DNA from: Candidatus Atabeyarchaeum deiterrae
Lineage (GTDB): Archaea > Asgardarchaeota > Atabeyarchaeia > Atabeyarchaeales > Atabeyarchaeaceae
Reading direction: 5' to 3'
DNA: 64,000 nt
NCBI GenBank assembly: GCA_037310415.1
Contig: CP147780.1
Span: forward strand, 832,001 to 896,000
Part shown: positions 31,637 to 45,329 of the stretch, one piece after another
How the letters are laid out: each line of letters starts with the position of its first letter
How positions within the stretch are numbered: the stretch's first letter is position 1
Translations under genes and position numbers: made by a program
Notes under the pieces: model-generated
What the model saw: the letters and a program-made list of their open reading frames with translations, nothing else
Database searches by the model: none
What the model was told of the DNA's origin: nothing

Positions 31637-32299
31637 ATGATAATAACGGAACAGAAAAAACTTGAGGAACTATTGGACAAACTAGCTCCATACAAGAACG
31701 TCCTCGTGGTTGGATGCGGACACTGTGCGACTGTTTGCCAAACTGGCGGAGAAGATCAAGTAAAAGAAATAGTCGGGAAACTCAAAGAAGCCAAGGGCTC
31801 AAGTGGAATGGTGGTCACAGCTGCCCTAGTTGAGGAACCATGCGACGTTAGAATTCTGAAGCGAGACAGCAAGAAATTCAAGAAGGAGTTTGAGAACGCA
31901 GACGCAATTCTTACAATGTGCTGCGGCGTAGGCACTCAGACAATCGCAGGCGCGATGAACAAAGTGGTTGTCCCAGCGCTAAACACACTATTTTTAGGAG
32001 AAGTTGAACGAATAGGCAAATTTGAAGAAATGTGCCGTGCATGTGGAAACTGCATCCTAGAGGAGACTGGTGGCATCTGCCCAATAACACGATGTGCAAA
32101 GGGCCTGCTGAACGGTCCATGCGGCGGCATGAGCAAAGGCAAGTGCGAGGTAAAGAACTACACCAAGGACTGCGGATGGGTCCTGATCTATAATAAACTC
32201 AAAGAACAGGGAAGACTCGACAAATTCAGACAATACAGAGAACCGCGTGATTACTCACTGTCAAGCTACCCAAGGAGCGTCGATACAAGGGCTGCTTAG
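31637..32299 (+). CDS. metV: MetV (MTHFR Fe-S/Zn partner subunit)
   Basis: Motifs GCGHCATVCQTGG, CCGVG and CRACGNC.L..TGGICPITRCAKGLLNGPCGG. Confidence 0.9.
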   Translation: MIITEQKKLEELLDKLAPYKNVLVVGCGHCATVCQTGGEDQVKEIVGKLKEAKGSSGMVVTAALVEEPCDVRILKRDSKKFKKEFENADAILTMCCGVGTQTIAGAMNKVVVPALNTLFLGEVERIGKFEEMCRACGNCILEETGGICPITRCAKGLLNGPCGGMSKGKCEVKNYTKDCGWVLIYNKLKEQGRLDKFRQYREPRDYSLSSYPRSVDTRAA

Positions 32300-32340
32300 A
32301 ACAAAGGGTAGCAAAATATAGAAGAGGTGTGTGATTCATA

Positions 32341-33264
32341 GTGCAAGCATATAGTAATCTTATGAAAGGTATCGTCGAGGGCAGGTTTGTGTACACCGGT
32401 GAGTTAGAACCAGAGAAAACGACAGACATAGCCCAAGTAATAAACGATGCAAAAGAATTGACGGGCTACGCCATAGCCTGCAATGTTACCGACAACCCGA
32501 AGTCATGTGGGTACGTAAGCAGCCTTGTAGCGTCTTACCTTGTTCAGCGTGATGCTGGCATGGAAACCGTTTATCAGCTCACCTGCCGAGACAGAAATAG
32601 ACTGGCATTAATATCAGATCTCCTAGGAGCGGGCGCGCTTGGCATAAAGAACGTCTTAGCTCTGACCGGGGACCATACGATGGTAGGAGATAATCCAGCC
32701 TCAAAACCCGTATTCGACCTTGACTCAGCGCAATTAACGTCCCTAATAAAAATGATGGATCAAAAAGAAGTGGATCTTGCTGGGAACAAGATTGAGCATC
32801 CTCCTAAGCTCAACGTCGGCGTTGCTGCGAATCCGAATGCAGACCCTCTCGAACCAGAACTTCTGAAACTCGAGAGAAAGGCAAAGGCTGGGGCAGATTT
32901 CGTGCAGACACAAGTAGTCTTCGATGTGGAAAAAGCCAAACAATTCGTAAACGAAGCGTCAAAATACAATGTTCCGCTTCTAATCGGGATCTTCCCTTTG
33001 AAGAGCTTTGCAATGGCGGACTTCTTCAACAAGAACGTTCCAGGATGCTCAGTACCAAACGACCTTCTTGATAGACTGAAGCAACTTAAGGACGGCATCC
33101 AAGACAAAGAGGAGAGGAAACGGAAGACGGACGAGTTGAACGTAGACTACTTCACCAGCTTCATCAAAGAGCTGAAAAAGACAAGAGGCTGCAAAGGGAT
33201 TCACGTAATGGCAGTGGGCTATGCCAGTGTGACCAAACAATTAATAGACAGAGTAGGACATTAA
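32341..33264 (+). CDS. metF: Methylene-tetrahydrofolate/-pterin reductase MetF (intact motifs)
   Basis: Motifs NVTDN, QLTCRDRNR, LTGDH, KPVFDLDS and AGADFVQTQ. Confidence 0.92.
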   Translation: MQAYSNLMKGIVEGRFVYTGELEPEKTTDIAQVINDAKELTGYAIACNVTDNPKSCGYVSSLVASYLVQRDAGMETVYQLTCRDRNRLALISDLLGAGALGIKNVLALTGDHTMVGDNPASKPVFDLDSAQLTSLIKMMDQKEVDLAGNKIEHPPKLNVGVAANPNADPLEPELLKLERKAKAGADFVQTQVVFDVEKAKQFVNEASKYNVPLLIGIFPLKSFAMADFFNKNVPGCSVPNDLLDRLKQLKDGIQDKEERKRKTDELNVDYFTSFIKELKKTRGCKGIHVMAVGYASVTKQLIDRVGH

Positions 33265-33311
33265 GTCCTATGTTATTCATTTTTTTAAACTCTGAAGAAC
33301 TGGCGTATTAA

Positions 33312-33851
33312 ATGAGAATCTGTGTTCCTCTCAACTCAACAACTAGCAACCTTAGAAAGTGGGTTGCCAAGGTCTTTCACAAGAATACACTAGCATTCTA
33401 CTCAGTAGGACCAAAGTTCGACGAAGTCTTGGCCGATGTTAAAGACAAAGCCGATACACACTTTCCAAACCTCACGAACCTAAAGAACCTTCAAGTAAAA
33501 CTTAGATGTCTCAGTCTTGCAGAGGTTGACATAAGCGAGGCCTTCATCGTCGACTATTTGGTCAAGTGCTCGCCTGACCGTGCGGGTGGGACTAAGTTCC
33601 CCCCGGAATTGACTTTGCCCCTTCAGATGACTTTATGTCCGGTGGTCGACCTTTACGATGAGGAACCATGGCTCTCAGACTGTAGAGCTATGTTGGCAAA
33701 GGAAGAGGCTTGCTACATCGCTAACGGCGGTCTATTAGGACCATACTCTACGGCAAAACTCAAAGAGGATGACAATGGAGAACTAGTTTGGAACGTTTCA
33801 TCAAGAACTGAGGGAAAGGAGCAATTGACGATAAGGTCCACCATTGACTAG
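33312..33851 (+). CDS. Hypothetical protein
   Basis: 179-aa ORF co-oriented between two metF paralogues; no recognisable motif. Confidence 0.55.
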   Translation: MRICVPLNSTTSNLRKWVAKVFHKNTLAFYSVGPKFDEVLADVKDKADTHFPNLTNLKNLQVKLRCLSLAEVDISEAFIVDYLVKCSPDRAGGTKFPPELTLPLQMTLCPVVDLYDEEPWLSDCRAMLAKEEACYIANGGLLGPYSTAKLKEDDNGELVWNVSSRTEGKEQLTIRSTID

Positions 33852-33885
33852 CACTGCTATCAGAACGCCAAGTCAGCAATAAAAG

Positions 33886-34743
33886 GTGGTTCAAACGAAA
33901 TTCACAAGACGTCTGCGCAATGAGGAATTCACCACTTCAGCAGAACTCACATTCTCCAGAGGAATCGATAGAATGGCCTTCATGGATGAGGCCAGAAAGT
34001 TATCGCAATCTGTTGACGCAATCGTAATCTCAGATTATTCCTTTGGACTTCCGACAATGAATCCTATAGTGCCTGCGCTATGGTTGAATGAAGAGAACAT
34101 CGAATCTGTAATGGGATTCTACATAGAACACAGAAATCCGGAAGCGATTTACTCGGATGTGCTAGCGGCCGTAGAAAGCAACCTAACTAATGTGATAGTC
34201 TCTTCATATGAGAGCCCTAAAGATTACGCAACTTGCTTAGAATTAGCTGACGGGATAAAGGTCACTCTTGAGAAACAATCAAAGGCCAAGAAGAGTGAAC
34301 CGCACAAACTCATAAACCTCGGACTGACTTCCGGCTACATGATCGAAAGACCCGAAGACAGCGTGACCCTTGCAAGGAGATATGGGGCGGACTTTGTTTG
34401 CCCCCCCGAAACATACGATATCTCGGGCATTGTTGAACCGCTGGTAAAAAGAGCAAGATCCATTGGAATCCATACAATACTAAAGACTACTCTATATGCG
34501 TCAGTCAAAACGGTTAAGTTTGCCCGAAAATTCATTCCTGAGATGTTCATTCCACCCGAATTTGTGGAGGCAGTTGAAGGTTCATCTAATCCTCTGGAAG
34601 TGGGTCTGGAATTCGTAAGAGACTTCCTTGAGACTGCTAAGAGCCTTAAGGCATGTGGAGTGTGCTTGACTTTGCCGCAGAAATTTGAAGTTTACGAACG
34701 CATACCAGAAATAGTAGGCAAGAAATCCCCGGAAGTAGACTAA
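33886..34743 (+). CDS. Highly divergent MetF-like TIM-barrel protein
   Basis: SAEL, VDAIVISD, HRN..AIYSD.LAA, GADFV and IPEM.IP align by eye to MetF. The GD and TQ motifs are lost. Confidence 0.7.
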   Translation: MVQTKFTRRLRNEEFTTSAELTFSRGIDRMAFMDEARKLSQSVDAIVISDYSFGLPTMNPIVPALWLNEENIESVMGFYIEHRNPEAIYSDVLAAVESNLTNVIVSSYESPKDYATCLELADGIKVTLEKQSKAKKSEPHKLINLGLTSGYMIERPEDSVTLARRYGADFVCPPETYDISGIVEPLVKRARSIGIHTILKTTLYASVKTVKFARKFIPEMFIPPEFVEAVEGSSNPLEVGLEFVRDFLETAKSLKACGVCLTLPQKFEVYERIPEIVGKKSPEVD

Positions 34744-34744
34744 T

Positions 34745-35275
34745 CTACTGCTGTTGCACTTCTTCATGCTCTGGTTCCTCCACCTTCTTCGTGATTGGTA
34801 GGGGGACCACTGGTGTTCCTTCGACCTTGAGAGGCCGAAGAGCTATGCAGCTGTTTATGGATAAGATGCCCTTAACTAATCTCAGGCTTTCAATGAACCT
34901 GGTGAGCTCACTTAAGTTTCCTGTTTCTACCTTCAACCATATCCCACATTTTCCACTCATCCAGTAAGCTTCAGAGACGAGTGGAGATTCCACAAGCATC
35001 TCTATGATGTCACTCTCATGCCTCGAAGATGTGCTGACAGTTATGTACGCTATGATGGATTTCCCCGTTTTCTCTGGGTTTAGCGCTATCGTGAATCGTT
35101 CGATCACCTTATCTCTAATAAGTTTCTCAACACGTTTGCGAACTGCGGACTCTGAGAGACCAACATTGCCGGCGATATCTCCATAGGGTGCTCGGCCGTC
35201 CCTGAGCAGGCAATCCAGAATCTTCCTATCTTTCTTGTCTATGCCGTACATATAGCTCAATGTCTCCACCTCCAA
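34745..35275 (-). CDS. Lrp/AsnC family transcriptional regulator
   Basis: Motifs ID..DRKIL..L..DGR and VGLSESAVRKRVEKL. Confidence 0.9.
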   Translation of the reverse strand: MEVETLSYMYGIDKKDRKILDCLLRDGRAPYGDIAGNVGLSESAVRKRVEKLIRDKVIERFTIALNPEKTGKSIIAYITVSTSSRHESDIIEMLVESPLVSEAYWMSGKCGIWLKVETGNLSELTRFIESLRLVKGILSINSCIALRPLKVEGTPVVPLPITKKVEEPEHEEVQQQ

Positions 35276-35582
35276 GGACTACTTTTTACTGTTTCACCGC
35301 ATTATAAAAACCTTTTCACTGTTCATTAATCTCTCTTCGACTGATACCGCATCCCAGAAATAGGAGATATCCTCTTTTAGTCGACAAGAAGACTGGTTCC
35401 CGCGTCTCGAAGTGCATTTTAGTGCGGTGGACGCCCCAAATAGTCTCGATTTTGCTGAAGTGACGCTCGTTTCCACAGTTTTCGGTTATTTTCTGCTGTG
35501 GATTCATCAATTATCAACCACTTTGTCGGCGTTTTCATTACTTCTTCATCACAGCAACTAGTTATTTCCGTTCATCCAATGA

Positions 35583-35957
35583 GTGGATCAATATCATAAC
35601 CAAATATTCGGAGGAGATGTGGACTTGCCTCAAAGACACCTTAAGGAAATTGCCTTGGTTGCTCTCGCAAAGGAGCTTCCAGCCGTAGCAAGATCAATAA
35701 GCACTGAAAAAAGGGAAATGATAAGTGAGGATTCAATAGACCTAATTTTGAAGTCTCAGAGCAATCCGCTACCGCAGGGTTTAGCGTGGTCAATAATACG
35801 CTTGATGGGCTACGAGAAACAGACCACTGACGCCGGTATGGAGAAACTGCTTGAGGCTGGCATGATGGTGGAGCCTGAGCAGACTATAGAGCTTCTCGAT
35901 AAGCATGGCGAGAGAGAAGCAGCTAATGCCCTGAGGAGAATCATTTCAAATAGATGA
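35583..35957 (+). CDS. Small all-helical hypothetical protein
   Basis: ORF immediately upstream of mer. GGAGGAG RBS near 35610 suggests the true start is about 35620-35630. Confidence 0.6.
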   Translation: MDQYHNQIFGGDVDLPQRHLKEIALVALAKELPAVARSISTEKREMISEDSIDLILKSQSNPLPQGLAWSIIRLMGYEKQTTDAGMEKLLEAGMMVEPEQTIELLDKHGEREAANALRRIISNR

Positions 35958-35984
35958 ATTTCGTGGAGAAGAAATCAGGAAGGT

Positions 35985-36983
35985 TTGATGGCTATGAAGT
36001 TTGGCGTGGAACTTGTTCCCAACAACCCGATAGACGAGGTTCTGAAGTGGGCCTCAGTGGCTGAGCAGAAGAAGTTCGACTACATCTGGGTAACGGATCA
36101 CTTCAACAATCGAAACACGTACGTTACACTAACTTCGATTGCTCTAAAGACAACGTCGGTGAGAATAGGACCAGGTGTAACTAACCCGTATCTTATCAAC
36201 CCAGCTTGGACTGCTTCTGCCATGGCCAGCCTTAGTGAAGTATCTAAGGGGAGGGCTGTTCTTGGGATTGGGGCGGGAGACCGAACCACTTTGGGATACC
36301 TCGGATTAGAACAGAAGAGCCCTGTTGCTGCCTTAGCTGAATGCGTAAGCATCATAAGAGGGTTGCTGAAAGGGGATGAGGTCAAGCTCCCAGGTAAGGT
36401 GTTCAATGTCTCGGGCGCCCGATTGAGCTATCAACCGGACTTCGTTCCAATCTACTTGGGTGTGCAGGGACCAAAGATGCTTCACCTTGCAGCGCAGATA
36501 AGCGATGGTGTCTTAGTGAATGCGTCTGATCCAGCGGAAATCTCATTGGCTGTGAGGGAAGTGAGAAGCGGGCTCGATGAAGCTAGTAGACCCTCTTCGG
36601 ACTTTGACATAGCTGCTTACACAAGCTTCTCCGTTGATACGGATCCCGCTATAGCGATGAAACTCGCTAGACCAGTAGTAGCGTTTATAGCTGCGGCCTC
36701 TCCCGATTCTGTACTCGAACGCCATGGGATCTCTCCTGAGTTGATTCAAACCATCAGAACGGCTCTCGGAAAGGGACAATTCAAAGAGGCGTTCAAGGCA
36801 GTTAATGACGAACTACTTGAAGTCTTTTCAATAACTGGAACACCATCCCAGGTCACTGAGAAAATATCTGCAATACTCAAGGAAGGAGTCTCTCAGCTGG
36901 TTATAGGCTCACCGATCGGGGTAGACAAGGTCAAGACACTGGAGTCGGTAGGCTCAGAAATAATTCCTCATTTTCTCCAGTGA
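35985..36983 (+). CDS. mer: F420-dependent methylene-H4MPT reductase
   Basis: Motifs MKFGVELVPN, WVTDHFNNRN, GPGVTNPY, GIGAGD, QGPKML, DGVLVNAS and GSPIG. Confidence 0.9.
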   Translation: MMAMKFGVELVPNNPIDEVLKWASVAEQKKFDYIWVTDHFNNRNTYVTLTSIALKTTSVRIGPGVTNPYLINPAWTASAMASLSEVSKGRAVLGIGAGDRTTLGYLGLEQKSPVAALAECVSIIRGLLKGDEVKLPGKVFNVSGARLSYQPDFVPIYLGVQGPKMLHLAAQISDGVLVNASDPAEISLAVREVRSGLDEASRPSSDFDIAAYTSFSVDTDPAIAMKLARPVVAFIAAASPDSVLERHGISPELIQTIRTALGKGQFKEAFKAVNDELLEVFSITGTPSQVTEKISAILKEGVSQLVIGSPIGVDKVKTLESVGSEIIPHFLQ

Positions 36984-37126
36984 GTGTTCAAAGAACCTGA
37001 CAAGAGCACCCAACTGGAATCCCTTCCTTTATTGTTCTCTTGTTCTTGGTCTTCTTTAAGTCAGCTTAGAGTCTAAATGAGAATATAGGATTCGGAAAAG
37101 AAGCGGCAGGACTCTAGTTTCTCGCA

Positions 37127-38035
37127 TTACTGGGATCGCGCGCTTAGGACATCAAGCTTAGTAGATACGATGTTGCAGCCGGAGACCCCTTTAACTGCTT
37201 TTAACTCCTTGACAAGCATGCTTACCAGATTCCGATTGATCTCAGAGATCTCCTTGCTTCTCGTTTCTGTATTCACGCTCTTCTTTTCTGCCTCTTTAAT
37301 TCTTTCGACGAGGTCTTCTGGCGGTTTAGAACTCGGATAGAGTTTATTAATCCAGTTGGAAGTCTCAACCGAGTCAATAGGATAAAGAGTAACAATCAAG
37401 GGAATGCCTATCTTACATGCCAAGTCTGCAGTCATTTTCGCTTTTTCACTATCATAGACTGGCAATGTGATGAGGTATGAAGCACCAGCATGTTTTTCCT
37501 TCTGGATCATCGATTCTGCCATCTCAGGTCGCGAGTGATCGAATCCAACAACTGCACCGATATCAAAACTCGCCGGCTTTATGACTTCTCCTGTGAAAGC
37601 CTTTCCAACACTCATCTGCTTAATCATCGTTATCAATTGAACAGTATCAACATCGAAAACAGGTTTCGCCTTGGTGTACGTACTTGTTGTCGTGTGAGCC
37701 CCAGCTGCGACGACGATGTCAGTCAATCCAAGTTGACCTGCAGTTAGTATATCCGAGAAGAGCCCCAGCCTGTTCCTGTCTCTGCTGTCCAAGCAGTATA
37801 TGGACTGGATCTTCAGTTTTTCCTTGATCAAGTAACTAGGAACTAGTGTGTTAAGGTAGAGCGAAGCCTTCGGGTCTCGGCCTACGATCACGGCATCGAC
37901 CAAGTTCTGTATTTTCTTCGCTTTTTCCAGTAACTTCTCAATCGAAGTCTGGCTGTCAACCTCAAGTTCCGCCATTGTAACGAACTTGCTCTCTTTGAGC
38001 TTGCCAACGACGCCACTACTCGAGCTCCTTGGCAT
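37127..38035 (-). CDS. Divergent MetF paralogue
   Basis: SRDRNRLGL.SD.L.A and KPVFDVDT are retained; GDH has become GAH and QTQ has become ITL. Confidence 0.8.
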   Translation of the reverse strand: MPRSSSSGVVGKLKESKFVTMAELEVDSQTSIEKLLEKAKKIQNLVDAVIVGRDPKASLYLNTLVPSYLIKEKLKIQSIYCLDSRDRNRLGLFSDILTAGQLGLTDIVVAAGAHTTTSTYTKAKPVFDVDTVQLITMIKQMSVGKAFTGEVIKPASFDIGAVVGFDHSRPEMAESMIQKEKHAGASYLITLPVYDSEKAKMTADLACKIGIPLIVTLYPIDSVETSNWINKLYPSSKPPEDLVERIKEAEKKSVNTETRSKEISEINRNLVSMLVKELKAVKGVSGCNIVSTKLDVLSARSQ

Positions 38036-38071
38036 TAGAACTGCAACCTCCAACAATCATCCCTATATTCT

Positions 38072-38719
38072 CTAATCTGTCCACACCACTTCCCCAAGAG
38101 TAGCTCTCAGGGATCCATCTCTTTCAGGTTGATACTTCTTCAGGTCTTCAAGTCTTCCAAGTTGTTTCATCCTATCGCATATCTGAACCCAGACACAGTC
38201 GTTCTTCCATCCTCCAACCTCGCATTTCCCATCGGAAACCATCTCGCACGGTCCGTTTAGAAGTTCCTTCGGGCATCTAGATATGGCGCATATACCTCCT
38301 GTATCAAACAAGGTACATGATCCACACATTCTACATCTCTCATAGAATCGACCGAGTCTCTCAACCATTCCCAAGAACTTGGTATCAAGTGCCGGAACAA
38401 CTGTCTTCCTGGTCAGATCAGCGATAGACTGCACTCCTACGCCACAAGTCATTGCCAATATGGCATCTGCTTCTTCGATCTGTTTCTGCACGGTCCTGAG
38501 ATCCCTTTTTGATATCCTTAAGTCGCAGGGGGACTCGACGGCGACTGTTGCCAGAATTTGCTTCTTGTCTTTGAGTCTTTCTACCATTTCCTTGATTTCT
38601 TCTTCGCCGCCAGTTTGACACAACGCCGAGCATGTGTTGCATCCCACTATCACAATCTTGTCATAACCTTCAAGCATCTTCACGATGTCTTCGAGCGATT
38701 TCTGCTCGGTAATTATCAA
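38072..38719 (-). CDS. metV: MetV paralogue
   Basis: MIITEQK start as in the 31637 copy; CNTCSALCQTGG and CRMCGSC..TGGICAISRCPK.LLNGPC. Confidence 0.88.
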   Translation of the reverse strand: MIITEQKSLEDIVKMLEGYDKIVIVGCNTCSALCQTGGEEEIKEMVERLKDKKQILATVAVESPCDLRISKRDLRTVQKQIEEADAILAMTCGVGVQSIADLTRKTVVPALDTKFLGMVERLGRFYERCRMCGSCTLFDTGGICAISRCPKELLNGPCEMVSDGKCEVGGWKNDCVWVQICDRMKQLGRLEDLKKYQPERDGSLRATLGEVVWTD

Positions 38720-38774: not shown

Positions 38775-39401
38775 TTACTTTGCAACCTCACTCATGCCAA
38801 TTTCAAGCCCTTTCATAAGTTGCGGAGTGTTATCTCCTCCTTCTTCCTCTAATAGCTCCTTAACTTCATTAACCTCTATAGGCAGCTTGCTTGTCCCTAG
38901 CGCAGCGCCCAGCATTACGATATTTGACATTGCAAAATCGCCGAACTCTCTCTTGGCTATCTCATTGGCTTTTACCCCTCTCACGTCCGGAGAAAAGGCC
39001 TTCATGATCTTGATAACTTCATCAAAAGGCGCTCCCTTCCAATTCTCAGACACTGCTTGAGGTGGGAGAATCTCATATTGGTTAACCAGTACGCATGTCT
39101 TCTCAGATGCAAACTTTGCGTTTCTAAGTGCCTCGTTAGTCTCCATGGCGATCAACATGTCTGCTCCAGCTTGTGGAACCAAGGGAGCGATTACGCTTGT
39201 TCTCTCATTTCGTTGTTCGCCAGCTTCATACATAACGTATCTTATGGAGTTGTCTACGGATCCTTCACGTTGCGAAGCCCCACGTGTCTCAGTTCCGACA
39301 ACGATCCACCCCTTCCTCTGTCCTATCTTCTTCAAGATATTCCCGGTTGTCATTATTCCTTGCCCGCCGACTCCTACTATTAGGATGCTGTATTTCCTCA
39401 A
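38775..39401 (-). CDS. iorB: Indolepyruvate:ferredoxin oxidoreductase beta subunit
   Basis: Motifs GVGGQG, ETRGASQREGSV and NIVMLGA. Confidence 0.88.
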   Translation of the reverse strand: MRKYSILIVGVGGQGIMTTGNILKKIGQRKGWIVVGTETRGASQREGSVDNSIRYVMYEAGEQRNERTSVIAPLVPQAGADMLIAMETNEALRNAKFASEKTCVLVNQYEILPPQAVSENWKGAPFDEVIKIMKAFSPDVRGVKANEIAKREFGDFAMSNIVMLGAALGTSKLPIEVNEVKELLEEEGGDNTPQLMKGLEIGMSEVAK

Positions 39402-39424
39402 TCATGGTTCCTCCCGATGAATCG

Positions 39425-41374
39425 TCACTCAATGTGCGGGTTGACTGTTGTCTTTGTTATTGCCATTCCACTCCTACAGATCTCCTTGCAAGCGCCACAA
39501 AGGGTGCACCTTGCGTCTTCTATATATGCGAATTCCTTCCCATTTTCCTCTTTTCTTATTAGGGCTGGGCAAGCGAAGCGCCTATAACACTCCTCGCAGT
39601 TCTGGCAACGATCGGATTCTATAGCGTAGTATGAGTATTTCCCTTTCTCCCGTTCAGCTTCTATAATAGGTTCCATTCTTCTTTTTGCAGGCAACGCGCA
39701 CTCACGTTGCGAGATGAGCACCCTCACACCCTTTTCTTCCAATCCTTCGGTGATTACTTGAATTGCATGACGGATACTGTATGGATCAAACACCTTCACA
39801 TACTTCACTCCACAAGCCTTAACTATATCTCTCAAGTTCACCGCGGGCTCAGCTTCCTCACGTAAGCTGTCAACACCAGTAGCAGGAGTAGGCTGCCCAC
39901 CAGTCATTCCAACCCACTTGTTATCCATTATAACAACAAGAACGTTTGCATTGTTATACACGGCACTTATCAACCCGGGAATTCCTGCATGTAGGAAGGT
40001 GCTGTCGCCGATCAAACCGACCATAGTGTCTTTGACTTTGAAACTCATCCCCGCAGCTATGTTGAAGCCCGCACCCATGGCTACAACCCAGTCCTGCATA
40101 GAGTATGGAGGAAGAGCGAGGGTAGCGTAACAGCCAATGTCTCCTCCAAAGATCACCTGACCTTTGCCTTTGCTTTCTATATAATGCTGTGCCGCTTTCT
40201 TCAACGCATATGCTGTAGCTCTGTGTGGACATCCTGGGCACAGGCTCGGATTCCTCTGTAAAGCTTTCGCCACGGCTTTGCTATACTTGGTCTGGATGCC
40301 TGCGTAGTCCACAGGTTCCTTCACACCAGTTGCCTTGCTAATGCCTCTTATCACAAGGTCGGTGTTTAGCTCGCCAACTGCAGGGAACAAATCTTTGCCG
40401 CGTACTTCTCTGAGCATCTTCTTGTCGAATAGTATTCTCTTCACTTCTGCTTCCATGAAGCCTTCTAACTCTTCAACCACAATTATCTTCTCAAGACCTT
40501 GGGCAAACTTCTCTATCAATTCAGGGTTGATGGGATAAGCGATGCCAAGCTTAAGGATGGGAAAATCATGAATTCCCAGCGAGTCCAGTGCCTCCATTGT
40601 GTAATTGAACGAACTGCCGGCTGTTATGACGCCCGTCTTCGCCTGACCTGATATAACCCTATTGAGCTCAGGCATATCGCCAGCAGCTTTCTCGGCTCTT
40701 TGAATTCGGCTTAGCAATCTTCCTTTGTTGCCCACAGCCACAAGGGTGGCGGATACATACTTACCAGGTGCCTTCTTGAATTGACCTTCTGCCTTAGCAG
40801 GATTAAGTTTTCCTAGAGCTACCTCCCCAATTCCATGGAGTGTTCTTGGAACCGCATATAACATTACAGGCAAGTCAAACTTCTCTGAGAGCTCGAAAGC
40901 CTTCAAAGTGAAGTCCTTGCACTCTTGTGAGTTTGACGGTTCAAGACAAATAGTGTGAGCATGCAATGCATAGTACCTATTGTCTTGTTCATTGGTCGAA
41001 CTTATGCAGCCTGGATCTCCTCCATTGACCAGCACGAGGCTACCAGGTTGAACTCCTATGTAGCACAATGTGAAGAATGGATCTGCTGCGACGTTCATGC
41101 CAACATGCTTCATCGCACACAGCGATCTCACGCCAGACCAGGCGCCACCAACTGCATTCTCGAGTGCTACGGCCTCGTTTACGGAGTATTGAAAATGCAG
41201 CCCCGGTACGTCTTTCGCGACTTCACATATAGTGTCTCCAACTTCCGAGGCGGGCGTGCCAGGATAAGTTGTGACCATACTGACGCCCGCTTCTAAAGCT
41301 CCACGGGCTATGGCCTCGGCGCCAAGCATTAACAGTTTTTCGCCTGTTTTGTCCGAGAGTATCTCTTTGGTAAT
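39425..41374 (-). CDS. iorA: Indolepyruvate:ferredoxin oxidoreductase alpha subunit (probable ATT start)
   Basis: Motifs EAIARGA, YPGTPASE, MKHVG.NVAAD, NEQDNR, LCPGCPHR, GDIGCY and GDSTF.H; C-terminal ferredoxin domain. Confidence 0.92.
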   Translation of the reverse strand: MTKEILSDKTGEKLLMLGAEAIARGALEAGVSMVTTYPGTPASEVGDTICEVAKDVPGLHFQYSVNEAVALENAVGGAWSGVRSLCAMKHVGMNVAADPFFTLCYIGVQPGSLVLVNGGDPGCISSTNEQDNRYYALHAHTICLEPSNSQECKDFTLKAFELSEKFDLPVMLYAVPRTLHGIGEVALGKLNPAKAEGQFKKAPGKYVSATLVAVGNKGRLLSRIQRAEKAAGDMPELNRVISGQAKTGVITAGSSFNYTMEALDSLGIHDFPILKLGIAYPINPELIEKFAQGLEKIIVVEELEGFMEAEVKRILFDKKMLREVRGKDLFPAVGELNTDLVIRGISKATGVKEPVDYAGIQTKYSKAVAKALQRNPSLCPGCPHRATAYALKKAAQHYIESKGKGQVIFGGDIGCYATLALPPYSMQDWVVAMGAGFNIAAGMSFKVKDTMVGLIGDSTFLHAGIPGLISAVYNNANVLVVIMDNKWVGMTGGQPTPATGVDSLREEAEPAVNLRDIVKACGVKYVKVFDPYSIRHAIQVITEGLEEKGVRVLISQRECALPAKRRMEPIIEAEREKGKYSYYAIESDRCQNCEECYRRFACPALIRKEENGKEFAYIEDARCTLCGACKEICRSGMAITKTTVNPHIE

Positions 41375-41774
41375 TGGCGATCGCCTCCAACTAGCCACTA
41401 AAGTGGAATATCGACTCATATCGTACCGAGTAAATAAAATGACCCGAATCAACAAGGGTGACCAGTTCTGTCTGTTTTTTAGATGAATGAAAAGCATCTT
41501 ATAATGTTATCTAATGTCCAGTTTGCACAGAGAGATAAGCACATCCGACATATTTATTTGGTGAAGCAAAAACTCCTATCTATTCTAGGTCATCAGGGTG
41601 TTATGTCATGAAAGAGACGGATGGCACTTTGGGATCTGGGGACAATCAATCGGTTCCTTGCTCGATCCACGAACATGTAACTTTGGTTGTGTCGGAGGGC
41701 GACTAAGAATGGTGCATTCTCTAAGCAGTGACTCCCACACTTCACGGAGTGAATTGTGCGCAGGCGGGTTTAGC

Positions 41775-43178
41775 CTGATTGAGAAGTTCTTTTCACCAAG
41801 AAGCATAGCCGTTGTCGGTGCGTCAAACAACCCAAACAGGTTTGGCTACAACGTGATGACGAATCTCATCGAAGCAGGCTTTGACGGGGATGTTTTTCCC
41901 GTGAGTCTGAAAGAAAGCATAGTATTTGACAGGGTAGCATACAAGAGCATACTAGACGTACCTGGAGCTGTAGATCTGGCTATCATGATCATACCAGCAA
42001 CCACAGTTCCCAGCGCTGTTGAGGAGTGCGGCAAAAAGGGAATCAAGGCAATTAGCATACTTTCTGGCGGTTTCAGTGAGGTCGGAAGAGAGGGAACTGA
42101 ACTCGAAGAGGAAGTCACGAATACTGCTAAACGATGCGGAATAAGAGTAGTCGGTCCCAACTGCGTCGGAACAATGAACACCCGCAAGAATCTAAACGCC
42201 TCCTTTGTAATGCGATCCATCAAAGGAAACATGGGACTCATCACTCAAAGTGGTGCACTTGGTGCATCATGTGCATATGTATCTAAGAGAGAAATGCTCG
42301 GCTTCAGCAAATTTGTCAACTTAGGCAATGCTTCTGACGTATCCGTCCCCGAAATCATACGATACTATACGCAGGATCCTGAAACCCGCGTGATCGGAAT
42401 ATACTTGGAAGGAGTAAAAGACGGTCGAAAATTCTTGGACGCTATCGGCGAAGCCACACCCATAAAGCCAATAGTGATTGTTAAAGCGGGCCGAACCGAA
42501 CAAGGTGCAAGAGCAGCATCGTCGCACACGGGATCACTTGCAGGATCAGACAAGATCTACAAAGCAATATTCAAGCAAAAAGGAGTAACGAGAGTCGGCT
42601 CATTATTCGAGTTAATCGACGTGGCCAAAGCTTTTACCAAACAACCCCTACCAAAAGGAAAACGCGTAGGAATAATAACCAACGCAGGCGGCGCGGGGGT
42701 ACTCGCTACAGATGCGTCCTCAGATTACGGCTTAACCATCTCATCATTAACACAGGAAACTGTAAAGTCCCTTAGAGCATTCCTGCCAGACGTTGCCATC
42801 CTCAACAATCCGGTCGACATCATTGCAAGCGCCAACAAAGATTGCTACCGCAAAACTACGGAAACTGTGGCTTCTGACGTGAATACTGATGCGTTGATTG
42901 TCAACTGTGTTGTTCCAACTTTCTTGGGCATGAAGCCTAGTGAGCATGCTGAAGGTGTTGTGGAAGCTTATAATAATTCAGTCAAAAGGCAGGGCAAGCT
43001 CCTCGTTTGTTGCTGGATGGCAGGGGAGCTAGCTGACCCCGGAAGAGAGATCCTTGAAAACGTAGGTATACCGGCGTACTCCTCTCCAGAAAGAGCAGCC
43101 CTAGCGGTCTCATGCTTGGCGAATTACAATGAATTCGCAACTAGGATCAAGAAACAGAGGAAAGAAAGAGATGGTTAG
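41775..43178 (+). CDS. acdA: ADP-forming acyl/acetyl-CoA synthetase alpha subunit (probable CTG start)
   Basis: Motifs FSPRSIAVVGAS, GPNCVG, TQSGA, ASSHTGSLAG (phospho-His), TNAGG.G and NPVD. Confidence 0.88.
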   Translation: MIEKFFSPRSIAVVGASNNPNRFGYNVMTNLIEAGFDGDVFPVSLKESIVFDRVAYKSILDVPGAVDLAIMIIPATTVPSAVEECGKKGIKAISILSGGFSEVGREGTELEEEVTNTAKRCGIRVVGPNCVGTMNTRKNLNASFVMRSIKGNMGLITQSGALGASCAYVSKREMLGFSKFVNLGNASDVSVPEIIRYYTQDPETRVIGIYLEGVKDGRKFLDAIGEATPIKPIVIVKAGRTEQGARAASSHTGSLAGSDKIYKAIFKQKGVTRVGSLFELIDVAKAFTKQPLPKGKRVGIITNAGGAGVLATDASSDYGLTISSLTQETVKSLRAFLPDVAILNNPVDIIASANKDCYRKTTETVASDVNTDALIVNCVVPTFLGMKPSEHAEGVVEAYNNSVKRQGKLLVCCWMAGELADPGREILENVGIPAYSSPERAALAVSCLANYNEFATRIKKQRKERDG

Positions 43179-44208
43179 AGATCATTTGCCAGTCTTCAGA
43201 GAAGGAGATTTTCTCGAAACCCGCGACAACTTGATTTTCGACGTAAAAGGACTTCTTCACCCGCATGATAGAGTAATCGCTTTTCTCAGGTACTACCCCT
43301 CCGAAGACGGCGAAAGGATAAGAGAAGGGGTAAGATATCGAAAGGTATACTCTCTAGATGAAAGATTCAGTGTTCTCAAAGACAAGTTTCCTTCATACGT
43401 TTACTTCGACAAGGTCTATGACTCAATAATGCAAGGCGTACCAGTGAACGATGTAGCACGCCTGTACCAACCAACTGAGAAACTGACAGAGATGTCAAGC
43501 AACCGCGCAACTCTAGACAAATTCGAAAGAGACTCATTGGAGTTCTGTGAAATCCTTTCTGGCTGTGCTTCTGTCAACATCAATAGACTGGGTTTGAGCG
43601 GCTCAATTCTAGTAGGTCTACACAACTTAAAATCAGACATTGACATAATTGTCTACGGTTCTGAGAGCTGTCTCGCAGTATATGGAGCGTTGAATAATCT
43701 TTACAGTAATGCAGACTCCTCAATAAGACCTTACAACGACGCAGAACTGAAAAAATTGTTCAGCTTCAGGTCAGCTGATACTGTTACTAGGTGGGAATCC
43801 TTCCTAAGAACTGAGAGAAGAAAGCGGCTTCAAGGAAAATTCAAAAACTACGAGTACTTCCTGCGGTTCATCAAAGACTGGAAGGAATTGAAGCTGAACT
43901 ATGGAGATCTAACCTACAGATCTCTCGGAAAGGTAACCATCAAAGCCGAAGTCGCCGACGATAGTGAAGCGCTCTTCACCCCATGTATCTACAAGATCAA
44001 GAATGCTGAAATAGTCGAGGAACAAGAAGCGAGAGAACTCATCATAGACGAAATTGCCTCTTTTCGAGGAAGATTTTGTGAAGTTGCTCGGAATGAAGAG
44101 CCCATAAGTGCTAGAGGAAAACTGGAACTTGTTATCGACAAGTCTGGCAACACTCATCATCGCGTTATCGTTGGCGGAGAGAAAGATGATTTTCTGACGC
44201 TATCATAG
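43171..44208 (+). CDS. Uncharacterised Pol-beta-superfamily nucleotidyltransferase (COG1665-like)
   Basis: GLSGSILVGLH...SDIDIIVYG (GS..DxD). Overlaps the acdA stop. Confidence 0.78.
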   Translation: MVRDHLPVFREGDFLETRDNLIFDVKGLLHPHDRVIAFLRYYPSEDGERIREGVRYRKVYSLDERFSVLKDKFPSYVYFDKVYDSIMQGVPVNDVARLYQPTEKLTEMSSNRATLDKFERDSLEFCEILSGCASVNINRLGLSGSILVGLHNLKSDIDIIVYGSESCLAVYGALNNLYSNADSSIRPYNDAELKKLFSFRSADTVTRWESFLRTERRKRLQGKFKNYEYFLRFIKDWKELKLNYGDLTYRSLGKVTIKAEVADDSEALFTPCIYKIKNAEIVEEQEARELIIDEIASFRGRFCEVARNEEPISARGKLELVIDKSGNTHHRVIVGGEKDDFLTLS

Positions 44209-44252
44209 TCAGGGTGAGAGACCTGACAATTCGAAAAGGAATGTGAAACCCA

Positions 44253-45329
44253 TTGAGAAAACCCAAAGATCGCGATTTCATAAGGACGACAGAAGACCTC
44301 TTATTTTGTGTTGTCGGTTGCCTCCATCCGCATGACAGATTGTTATCTTACCTCAAGTATATCCCAAGTGACAGCGGGATTTGGGCTTCAGGAGATCTGC
44401 ATTTTAAGAGAATGATACCATACTATTCTGCCAAGTCCGTTATCGACACTCACTCGTTTCTCAAGGAAGAATACCCCAAGTACCTGTTCTACAGCCGGGT
44501 GAACGACATAACTTTTCCAGCGGTTCCTCGCTCTGAGATCAAGGAATACTATGAGCCAGAAGTCAGGTTGAAAGAGTTAGTGGGAAGAAAAGGTGAACTT
44601 GATGAACTTCAGCGTAAGGCAGTGGAATTGGCTGAGTATCTCTCTAGTAGAAGTGGGGTTCCTCTTGATAGATTTGGGGTCACTGGCTCCATCCTGCTGG
44701 GGATTCACAATGTGTCAATCTCTGACGTTGACCTCACGATCTATGGACACGAGAATGCATTGCTTGTGAAACAGGCTCTAATTAGAGAATTCGAGAACAC
44801 TGAAAACCCATCAAGGTTAAGGCAACTCAACGAAAGTGAAGCAGAGGACTGGTGCACAAGGAAAACCAGACAATTCTCAATCGATTATGGATTTGCGGCG
44901 GCGATTTTGAGGAAGAAGTGGAATTTCGGATTCTATGAGGAAAAGTTCTTCTCTATTCATCCAATCAAACTTGACTCTGAGATAACTGAAATATACGGTG
45001 AAAAAGAATTTACGAGCAAAGGCACAGTGGAGATTATTGCAGACGTTGCTGATAGCACGGAGGCGCTATTCAACCCTGCGTCCTATAAAGTGAATGAAGT
45101 TCGGATACTAGAAGGGTTGAAGGTTAACGACATAGAAGAAGTAGTTTCCTTCGAAGGCTTCTTTTCTGACCTTGCTTCAAACAATGAATCGATCAGGGTG
45201 AAAGGGAATCTTGAAACTGTCACAGGCGTCAGAAGTGGGAAGAAGTACCACAGAGTAGTTGTCGGTTCGAAGAACGTCTCTTCCCCTGAGTATATAATCC
45301 CCATATCCCAACTAAAAGAAGAGATATAG
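44253..45329 (+). CDS. Second nucleotidyltransferase paralogue (COG1665-like)
   Basis: GVTGSILLGIH...SDVDLTIYG; collinear with the upstream paralogue. Confidence 0.78.
   Translation: MRKPKDRDFIRTTEDLLFCVVGCLHPHDRLLSYLKYIPSDSGIWASGDLHFKRMIPYYSAKSVIDTHSFLKEEYPKYLFYSRVNDITFPAVPRSEIKEYYEPEVRLKELVGRKGELDELQRKAVELAEYLSSRSGVPLDRFGVTGSILLGIHNVSISDVDLTIYGHENALLVKQALIREFENTENPSRLRQLNESEAEDWCTRKTRQFSIDYGFAAAILRKKWNFGFYEEKFFSIHPIKLDSEITEIYGEKEFTSKGTVEIIADVADSTEALFNPASYKVNEVRILEGLKVNDIEEVVSFEGFFSDLASNNESIRVKGNLETVTGVRSGKKYHRVVVGSKNVSSPEYIIPISQLKEEI

Follow-up and report, generated by a model that had tools for sequence, protein, structure and literature searches.

The window analysed here is a stretch of 64,000 nucleotides (bases 832001-896000) of the closed 2.76-Mb genome of a member of the Atabeyarchaeia, a lineage of Asgard archaea described in PMC11291895. 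It contains a cluster of genes for MetF, the catalytic subunit of methylenetetrahydrofolate reductase (MTHFR), and for MetV, its Fe-S small subunit, which surround the gene for Mer, the reductase of methylene-tetrahydromethanopterin (methylene-H4MPT). All nine genes that an earlier note on this DNA had listed were found at the coordinates it gave (Table 1). According to the listing of open reading frames (ORFs) and the family scans, four genes in a row on the plus strand (MetV1, MetF1, hyp179 and MetF3) are followed by Lrp on the minus strand, then by hyp124 and Mer on the plus strand, and finally by MetF2, MetV2, IorB and IorA on the minus strand. Our main concern is with two of the three MetF proteins, MetF2 and MetF3, which have lost the pterin-binding residues of the family, are under purifying selection and, on balance, appear to have acquired new functions.

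Table 1. Genes of the MetF/MetV cluster, with positions counted from the first base of the window
Gene	Assignment	Position	Strand	Evidence
MetV1	Fe-S small subunit, archaeal/acetogen-type MetVF	31637-32299	+	PF12225, 121.6 bits
MetF1	Canonical MTHFR-type catalytic subunit	32341-33264	+	PF02219, 136.9 bits
hyp179	Asgard-specific protein linked to MetVF/Mer/Hdr clusters	33312-33851	+	No family match
MetF3	Strongly diverged MTHFR-fold barrel	33886-34743	+	hhalign and AF2 fold; no Pfam/NCBIfam match
Lrp	Lrp/AsnC-family regulator	34745-35275	-	PF13404 and PF01037
hyp124	Small Asgard-specific protein	35583-35957	+	No Pfam match
Mer	F420-dependent methylene-H4MPT reductase	35985-36983	+	NCBIfam equivalogs
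MetF2	Diverged Atabeyarchaeia-specific MetF paralogue	37127-38056	-	PF02219, 36.6 bits
MetV2	Intact Fe-S partner of MetF2	38072-38719	-	PF12225, 104.9 bits
IorB and IorA	Indolepyruvate:ferredoxin oxidoreductase	38775-41497	-	TIGR03334; POR_N, TPP_enzyme_C and Fer4 domains

RESULTS

Loss of pterin-binding residues in MetF2 and MetF3

MetF1 provides the standard of comparison. In the alignment its Glu, GD and TQ motifs are all intact, with LTGD aligned to the LRGD of solved MTHFRs and TQ to their ITQ, and it keeps 43 of 50 family-conserved positions, each of them shared by at least 75% of canonical MetFs. MetF2, which is 33% identical to MetF1 and scores above the PF02219 gathering cut-off of 24 bits, retains the general-acid Glu (Glu28 of Escherichia coli MTHFR), an RDRN motif and 27 to 30 of the 50 positions. 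At the position of the pterin-binding Asp (E. coli Asp120) it has A, where its orthologues have I or T, and at that of the Gln (E. coli Gln183) it has L, where its orthologues have T or L; GA and TL thus stand in place of GD and TQ. MetF3 has neither motif, and the loss of Asp and Gln from both copies, as first described in the earlier note, was borne out. The Glu is present in the MetF3 proteins of Atabeyarchaeia, is replaced in the orthologues from Freyarchaeia and Jordarchaeia and from Loki-type genomes, and is hence not a feature of the family. Only 11 to 20 of the 50 canonical positions are kept in MetF3. As regards a bound flavin (FMN or FAD), the comparison of conserved positions found that general scaffold glycines alone are retained. 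Substitution of these residues in the E. coli enzyme is severe: Asp120Asn has a kcat of 0.3% and a Km raised more than 40-fold, and Gln183Ala or Gln183Glu raises the Km more than 250-fold (PMC11094777). Judged by the Asp and Gln, MetF2 and MetF3 are homologues of MTHFR but would not be functional members of the family. MetF-like proteins lacking the Asp and/or the Gln also occur elsewhere, in about 20 of 148 representatives; one is encoded behind MetV in another Asgard metagenome-assembled genome (MAG) and one beside a double HdrA.

Homology and fold of MetF3

MetF3 gave no match at the gathering score of PF02219, and a PDB sequence search with its profile found nothing. A PF02219 scan of the entire genome returned MetF1 and MetF2 only, and MetF3 is therefore invisible to routine annotation. 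BLASTP relates it to MetF2 (E 2e-13) and to MetF1 (E 2e-4), and a profile built from 18 orthologues aligned with the canonical MetF profile over 266 columns (hhalign 99.8%, E 6e-29, 18% identity). An AlphaFold2 (AF2) model of MetF3, the one protein covered by the fold check, has a pLDDT of 89 and the (beta-alpha)8 fold of MTHFRs. In Foldseek the top PDB matches of this model were all MTHFRs, with TM scores of 0.64-0.73, and against MTHFR clusters of the ESM Atlas the TM scores were 0.79-0.84. On this profile and model evidence, we conclude that MetF3 is a true homologue of MTHFR/MetF despite the lack of a Pfam match. Six residues are invariant in, and specific to, MetF3: D50, R83, E175, Y177, K215 and F216. 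The first four stand just after beta-strands in the AF2 model, on the catalytic face of the TIM barrel, and this arrangement suggests that MetF3 retains a putative ligand site.

Conservation and selection

Relatives were identified with a MetF3-alignment scan of named genome records, in which the nearest were Atabeyarchaeia-1 (CP147779) and the MAG LC30, and the farther ones were Freyarchaeia-1 (CP147778), Jordarchaeia MAGs and some Promethearchaeia (Loki-type) MAGs. The full arrangement recurs in both other Atabeyarchaeia genomes, with identities of 74-75% for MetF3, 64-73% for MetF2 and 63-68% for hyp179. Compared with a metagenome contig that is 99.3% identical in DNA, MetF3 has 13 synonymous and 6 non-synonymous changes (pN/pS 0.14), hyp179 has 4 and 1 (pN/pS 0.07), and MetF2 has 3 and 0. 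Between genera, dS is saturated and the dN of the paralogues is 0.15-0.25; omega is therefore at most about 0.13, comparable to that of IorB. The paralogues evolve 2-3 times faster than MetF1 (dN 0.05-0.08), yet they are constrained. The earlier note had held that its reading would fall if the degenerate copies were specific to this genome and evolved neutrally; neither is the case, since they recur in relatives and have a dN/dS of about 0.14 or less.

The two paralogues differ in distribution. Among 400 Asgard genomes, full-length MetF3 was found only in Atabeyarchaeia (3 of 3), in Freyarchaeia and Jordarchaeia (4-5 of 6) and in one Loki-type genus (5 of 5), and it always lies near MetVF. For MetF2, 1.84 billion representatives were searched exhaustively with HMMER; a single cluster of orthologues (66% identity) came up, with the next match at 34%, and the MetV2/MetF2 pair is therefore specific to Atabeyarchaeia. 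A PDB sequence search with MetF2 found nothing.

MetV2-MetF2 and the IorAB genes

MetV2 is 51% identical to MetV1, keeps every invariant MetV Cys (12) and is 85-87% identical between Atabeyarchaeia genera. Its start codon is TTG, preceded by a Shine-Dalgarno-like GAGGTGA; the start of MetF2 is probably Met8, an ATG near 38035 behind a Shine-Dalgarno-like GGAGGT site. The gaps along IorA-IorB-MetV2-MetF2 are 23, 55 and 15 bp, and the gene order is kept in both other Atabeyarchaeia genomes (G001 and G002) and in the strain contig (L029). This spacing and synteny suggest that MetV2-MetF2 may be co-transcribed with IorA-IorB. In an unconstrained tree MetF2 had a long stem (1.33) and no clear place, and the informative tests were those with a constraint. 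When MetF2 was constrained to lie inside the archaeal-type MetF clade, the tree was 10 log-likelihood units above the free search (approximately unbiased test, p 0.74), and a topology with MetF2 as sister to the Atabeyarchaeia MetF1 was not rejected (p 0.45). These tests thus identify MetF2 as a diverged duplicate of archaeal MetF.

MetV1-MetF1, Mer and F420

MetV1 keeps 12 of 12 invariant MetV Cys and is 80-85% identical to its orthologues in other Atabeyarchaeia genomes. In the tree, MetF1 falls within the Asgard/archaeal-type MetF clade, which has been proposed to use H4MPT (PMC9012536). Mer passed the cut-offs of both NF002619 (421.8 bits, cut-off 276) and TIGR03555 (409.7 bits, cut-off 348.7), so that Mer and MetVF do coexist at this locus, as the earlier note had held. 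The closed genome has several F420-related genes: CofD (926778-927590), three of the CofE family (523174, 627289 and 1820859) and two of the FrhB family (186786 and 826127). A search of the closed genome for FO synthase gave no match for CofG and a best CofH-like match of 20.9 bits against a cut-off of 374.1. With neither CofG nor CofH found, the organism would have to salvage FO or use an unknown route to obtain F420, and the missing FO synthase may be a reason for the presence of the F420-independent MetVF beside Mer.

Gene neighbourhoods in other Asgard archaea

An Lrp gene accompanies MetVF at every Asgard locus examined. Freyarchaeia and Jordarchaeia have a single MetVF, in the order Lrp, Lrp, hyp179-MetF3, hyp124-Mer, MetV-MetF. 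In the Loki-type genus (locus L028) the order is HdrA-HdrA-MvhD fusion, HdrC, HdrB, MetV, MetF, Lrp, S-adenosylmethionine (SAM) methyltransferase and a MetF3-like gene, with a hyp124-like gene nearby; the 178-aa gene before the Loki-type MetF3, tried as a candidate hyp179, is this SAM methyltransferase and was rejected. Two further loci are without MetF3, one with the order Lrp, hyp179-like, MetV, MetF, Mer (G009) and the other with hyp179-like, HdrA2-MvhD fusion, MetV, MetF, Lrp (G149). A 285-aa ORF after Mer in G009 and a 204-aa ORF after the hyp179-like gene in G150 were not MetF3-like. Given this recurrent synteny, MetF3, hyp179 and hyp124 therefore mark a conserved Asgard MetVF/Mer/Hdr neighbourhood.

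The Hdr genes form part of it in some lineages. At L028:62-6679 (Promethearchaeia ABR01) and L040:7629-12687 (G149) there is an HdrA-HdrA-MvhD fusion of 1148-1153 aa. In the former it is followed by HdrC, HdrB, MetV and MetF, which amounts to a Moorella-type Hdr-MetVF cluster in Asgard archaea, and in the latter directly by MetV and MetF. Next to MetV-MetF there is in each case an Lrp gene, downstream in L028 and convergent in L040; the vicinity also includes a MetF3-like gene in L028 and a hyp179-like gene in L040. In the Atabeyarchaeia genome, none of the four HdrA loci adjoins MetVF. The association of MetVF with Hdr/MvhD to which the earlier note had pointed is therefore found in Loki-type and family f26 Asgard loci but not in the genome under study.

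The two small proteins that travel with these genes resemble little else. Neither hyp179 nor hyp124 had a usable match in Pfam or in an Atlas feature search (scores 0.82-0.84, hyp124 included), and a PDB profile search with hyp179 gave nothing usable. Orthologues of hyp179 occur in Atabeyarchaeia, Freyarchaeia and Jordarchaeia and families f8 and f26, and they always adjoin MetF3, MetV-MetF or the HdrA2-MvhD fusion. The possibility that hyp179 is a degenerate MetV was rejected (hhalign probability 0.1 against MetV), and the automatic Joint Genome Institute (JGI) label "HicB-like" on some of its orthologues could not be confirmed. A prediction of the complex of MetF3 with hyp179 gave scores of 0.00, 0.52 and 0.00, which speak neither for nor against binding. 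The hyp124 family is present in 137 of the 400 Asgard genomes, and in at least 20 Loki-family genomes its gene shares a contig with MetF at a distance of 2-12 kb; the protein of the window is likely 110 aa long, with a start near 35625. The Mer homologue of G149 (L040:2619-4259, 546 aa) has an N-terminal extension of about 210 residues with an internal repeat; a comparison of this extension with hyp124 found no significant similarity.

Other genes in and near the window

Beyond IorA there is a divergent gene for an ADP-forming acyl-CoA synthetase, and a Vhu/Mvh-HdrA operon with HdrBC lies 7-13 kb farther downstream in the window. The acyl-CoA synthetase gene is followed by two tandem ORFs of about 358 aa without a Pfam match (43129-45329 of the window), of which the first overlaps with the end of that gene. 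A second HdrA-MvhD locus, immediately before the start of the window at 827009-829347 of the genome, has in-frame TGA codons in the HdrA and MvhD matches, which are probably selenocysteine codons.

DISCUSSION

Our results suggest that this locus would be a conserved Asgard neighbourhood of one-carbon and redox genes rather than one enlarged reductase. Its working core would consist of MetV1-MetF1 as an F420-independent Fe-S/flavin methylene-pterin reductase, of Mer as the F420-dependent route and of Lrp, with hyp179 and hyp124 as putative accessory proteins. Two MTHFR-fold paralogues would have joined this core, and purifying selection has maintained them after the loss of the residues that hold and activate the pterin; because of this selection after the loss, MetF2 and MetF3 are most likely neofunctionalised. 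MetF3 is the older family, in which all four catalytic positions of MTHFRs have been lost as family features, and it may have a ligand-binding or accessory role tied to MetVF/Mer. The MetV2-MetF2 pair probably arose from an archaeal-type MetVF within or before Atabeyarchaeia. It could be an Fe-S/flavoprotein module associated with 2-oxoacid oxidation, with something other than canonically bound methylene-pterin as its acceptor or substrate. We lean towards this interpretation, an ordinary core with two neofunctionalised paralogues that are neither decaying nor extra methylene-pterin reductases, and give it somewhat better than even chances; what the analysis establishes directly is homology, fold, residue loss, distribution, synteny and selection, and flavin binding, the coupling to IOR at operon level and all activities are predictions.

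Several points weigh against it. The strain-level substitution counts are small, and the assignments of activity, cofactor and interaction, including the putative flavin binding of MetF2 and MetF3, are indirect. The AF2 model of hyp179, a putative accessory protein, is poor (pLDDT 42). The link with IorAB is seen inside Atabeyarchaeia only and could reflect lineage inheritance without functional meaning, and the catalytic Glu and RDRN of MetF2 leave room for a residual or altered pterin reaction.

It is also possible, although we consider it unlikely, that MetF2 and/or MetF3 are catalytically dead pseudo-enzyme subunits which form hetero-oligomers with an active MetF and serve there as scaffold or regulator. 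MTHFRs are oligomers, and such a role would fit with the loss of the pterin-binding residues, with purifying selection on both paralogues and with the constant presence of MetF3 near MetVF. However, MetF2 has an intact MetV2 of its own, which a mere scaffold would not need, and the invariant D50, R83, E175 and Y177 on the modelled catalytic face of MetF3 suggest a ligand site. A bolder proposal, which we hold with little confidence, treats the genes of the neighbourhood as two systems. According to this proposal, hyp179, hyp124 and MetF3 would be unrecognised accessory subunits of an Asgard Hdr/MvhD-linked MetVF that carries out methylene-H4MPT reduction in archaea of the Asgard/ANME-1/Bathyarchaeia type; independently of this, MetV2-MetF2, as a novel Fe-S/flavin enzyme, would feed IorAB through a reaction at a C-N bond of a substrate derived from an amino acid.

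The earlier note had favoured an expanded module for a single reaction. In such a module, all three MetFs would join both MetVs, Mer and Hdr/MvhD in one machine for methylene-pterin reduction that receives electrons from several sources, and the degenerate MetFs would be subunits of it. The genes do all lie within 7 kb, and the Vhu/Mvh-HdrA operon and HdrBC are in the same window; throughout several Asgard lineages MetVF and Mer are accompanied by MetF3, hyp179 and hyp124, and in Loki-type and f26 loci MetVF follows the HdrA-HdrA-MvhD fusion, as in the Moorella complex. On the other side, MetV2-MetF2 is on the strand opposite to mer, in an apparent operon with IorAB and not with mer, and is absent outside Atabeyarchaeia, while MetF3 is paired with a protein that is not a MetV. 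A single MetVF suffices in Freyarchaeia and Jordarchaeia, in G009 and in the Loki type, and the separation of MetVF from all HdrA loci of this genome also argues against such a machine. To our knowledge, Mer is soluble and stands alone in all characterised cases. We therefore regard one expanded complex as quite improbable, and this part of the earlier interpretation was not supported.

The same note had suggested that the degenerate copies may be either pseudo-enzyme subunits, which we have kept as an alternative, or enzymes for another pterin. Methylene-pterin reduction with a different carrier or binding mode would be compatible with the Glu, the RDRN motif and the MetV partner that MetF2 has kept. 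However, the pterin head group is common to tetrahydrofolate (H4F) and H4MPT, and MetF1, whose type has been proposed to act on H4MPT, still has the Asp and the Gln, so that their loss from the paralogues is not explained by a change of pterin. The Asp position of MetF2 varies among orthologues (A, I or T), so that it does not provide a new conserved ligand, and the MetF3 family as a whole does not conserve the Glu. In Mer and Mfr, which are unrelated, residues occupy places equivalent to those of MTHFR, the same positions matter in Mer, and all three enzymes keep a carboxylate and a Gln there, although the mutant of the equivalent carboxylate in Mfr, with 30% of its kcat left, offers this alternative some support (PMC11094777). 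We thus consider another carrier very unlikely. Finally, the faster evolution of the paralogues relative to MetF1 might suggest decaying duplicates, or pseudogenes in the making, but with reading frames intact in every genome, an omega of about 0.14 or less, and MetF3 kept across three Asgard classes and MetF2 across two genera, this reading is almost certainly wrong and was rejected.

Little of this cluster is visible in published annotation. On MTHFR, PMC11291895 mentions only its expression in Atabeyarchaeia-2 and Freyarchaeia. The supplementary KEGG table of that study lists for this genome one metF (gene 909), mer (gene 914) and no metV; it counts a single metF for each of the two Atabeyarchaeia genomes, metV in neither, and no metF in Freyarchaeia, and its supplements contain no rows for the paralogue genes. 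We find MetV in all three genomes, and MetV-MetF is clearly present in Freyarchaeia-1 (L015:12371-13957). Hence, routine annotation undercounts MetF and MetV, and as a result parts of the Asgard methyl branch may be missing from metabolic reconstructions. Full-text searches of a limited literature library found no paper describing MetF paralogues in Asgard archaea, and within the limits of that literature the extra MetV, MetF2, MetF3, hyp179 and hyp124 are undescribed. The electron donor and partners of MetVF are unknown in the archaea concerned, which include Asgard lineages, ANME-1 and Bathyarchaeia (PMC9012536). As conserved, unannotated families that travel with MetVF, Mer and Hdr-MvhD, MetF3, hyp179 and hyp124 are candidates for these missing partners. 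The apparent MetV2-MetF2/IorAB operon, for its part, suggests that the MTHFR scaffold may have been reused outside C1 metabolism.

Among known systems, the nearest is the archaeal/acetogen-type MetVF, or type III MTHFR, which comprises the clade of ANME-1, Bathyarchaeia and Asgard archaea (PMC9012536) and the MetFV of Clostridium ljungdahlii and Moorella. MetV1-MetF1 is a plain member of this type, with an adjacent MetV, intact Glu, Asp and Gln and a position in the Asgard/archaeal clade. MetV2-MetF2 resembles it in being built from two genes, in the full set of MetV Cys and in the Glu of MetF, but differs in the absence of the pterin-binding Asp and Gln, in the smaller number of conserved positions and in being encoded with IorAB. 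MetF3 departs further, as it has neither a MetV partner nor the Asp and Gln. The Mer of the window agrees with known Mer at both equivalog cut-offs; unlike in the known setting, it adjoins its F420-independent alternative. The HdrABC-MvhD-MetFV complex of Moorella thermoacetica (Mock et al. 2014, as cited in PMC9012536) has the same gene set that we find clustered in Loki-type and f26 loci, whereas in the genome studied here MetVF adjoins no Hdr gene, and as the complex is presented there it includes no degenerate MetF subunit, hyp179 or hyp124. A parallel to MetF3 itself is Cthe_2304 of Clostridium thermocellum (PDB 3IJD), an uncharacterised protein of MTHFR fold that was crystallised with two molecules of 5-methyl-tetrahydrofolate. 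It shares this fold with MetF3, has no reductase activity assigned to it either, and is one of the Foldseek matches to the AF2 model of MetF3 (E 4.5e-7, TM score 0.63); unlike MetF3, to which it is only 11% identical, it is bacterial and stands in another gene context.

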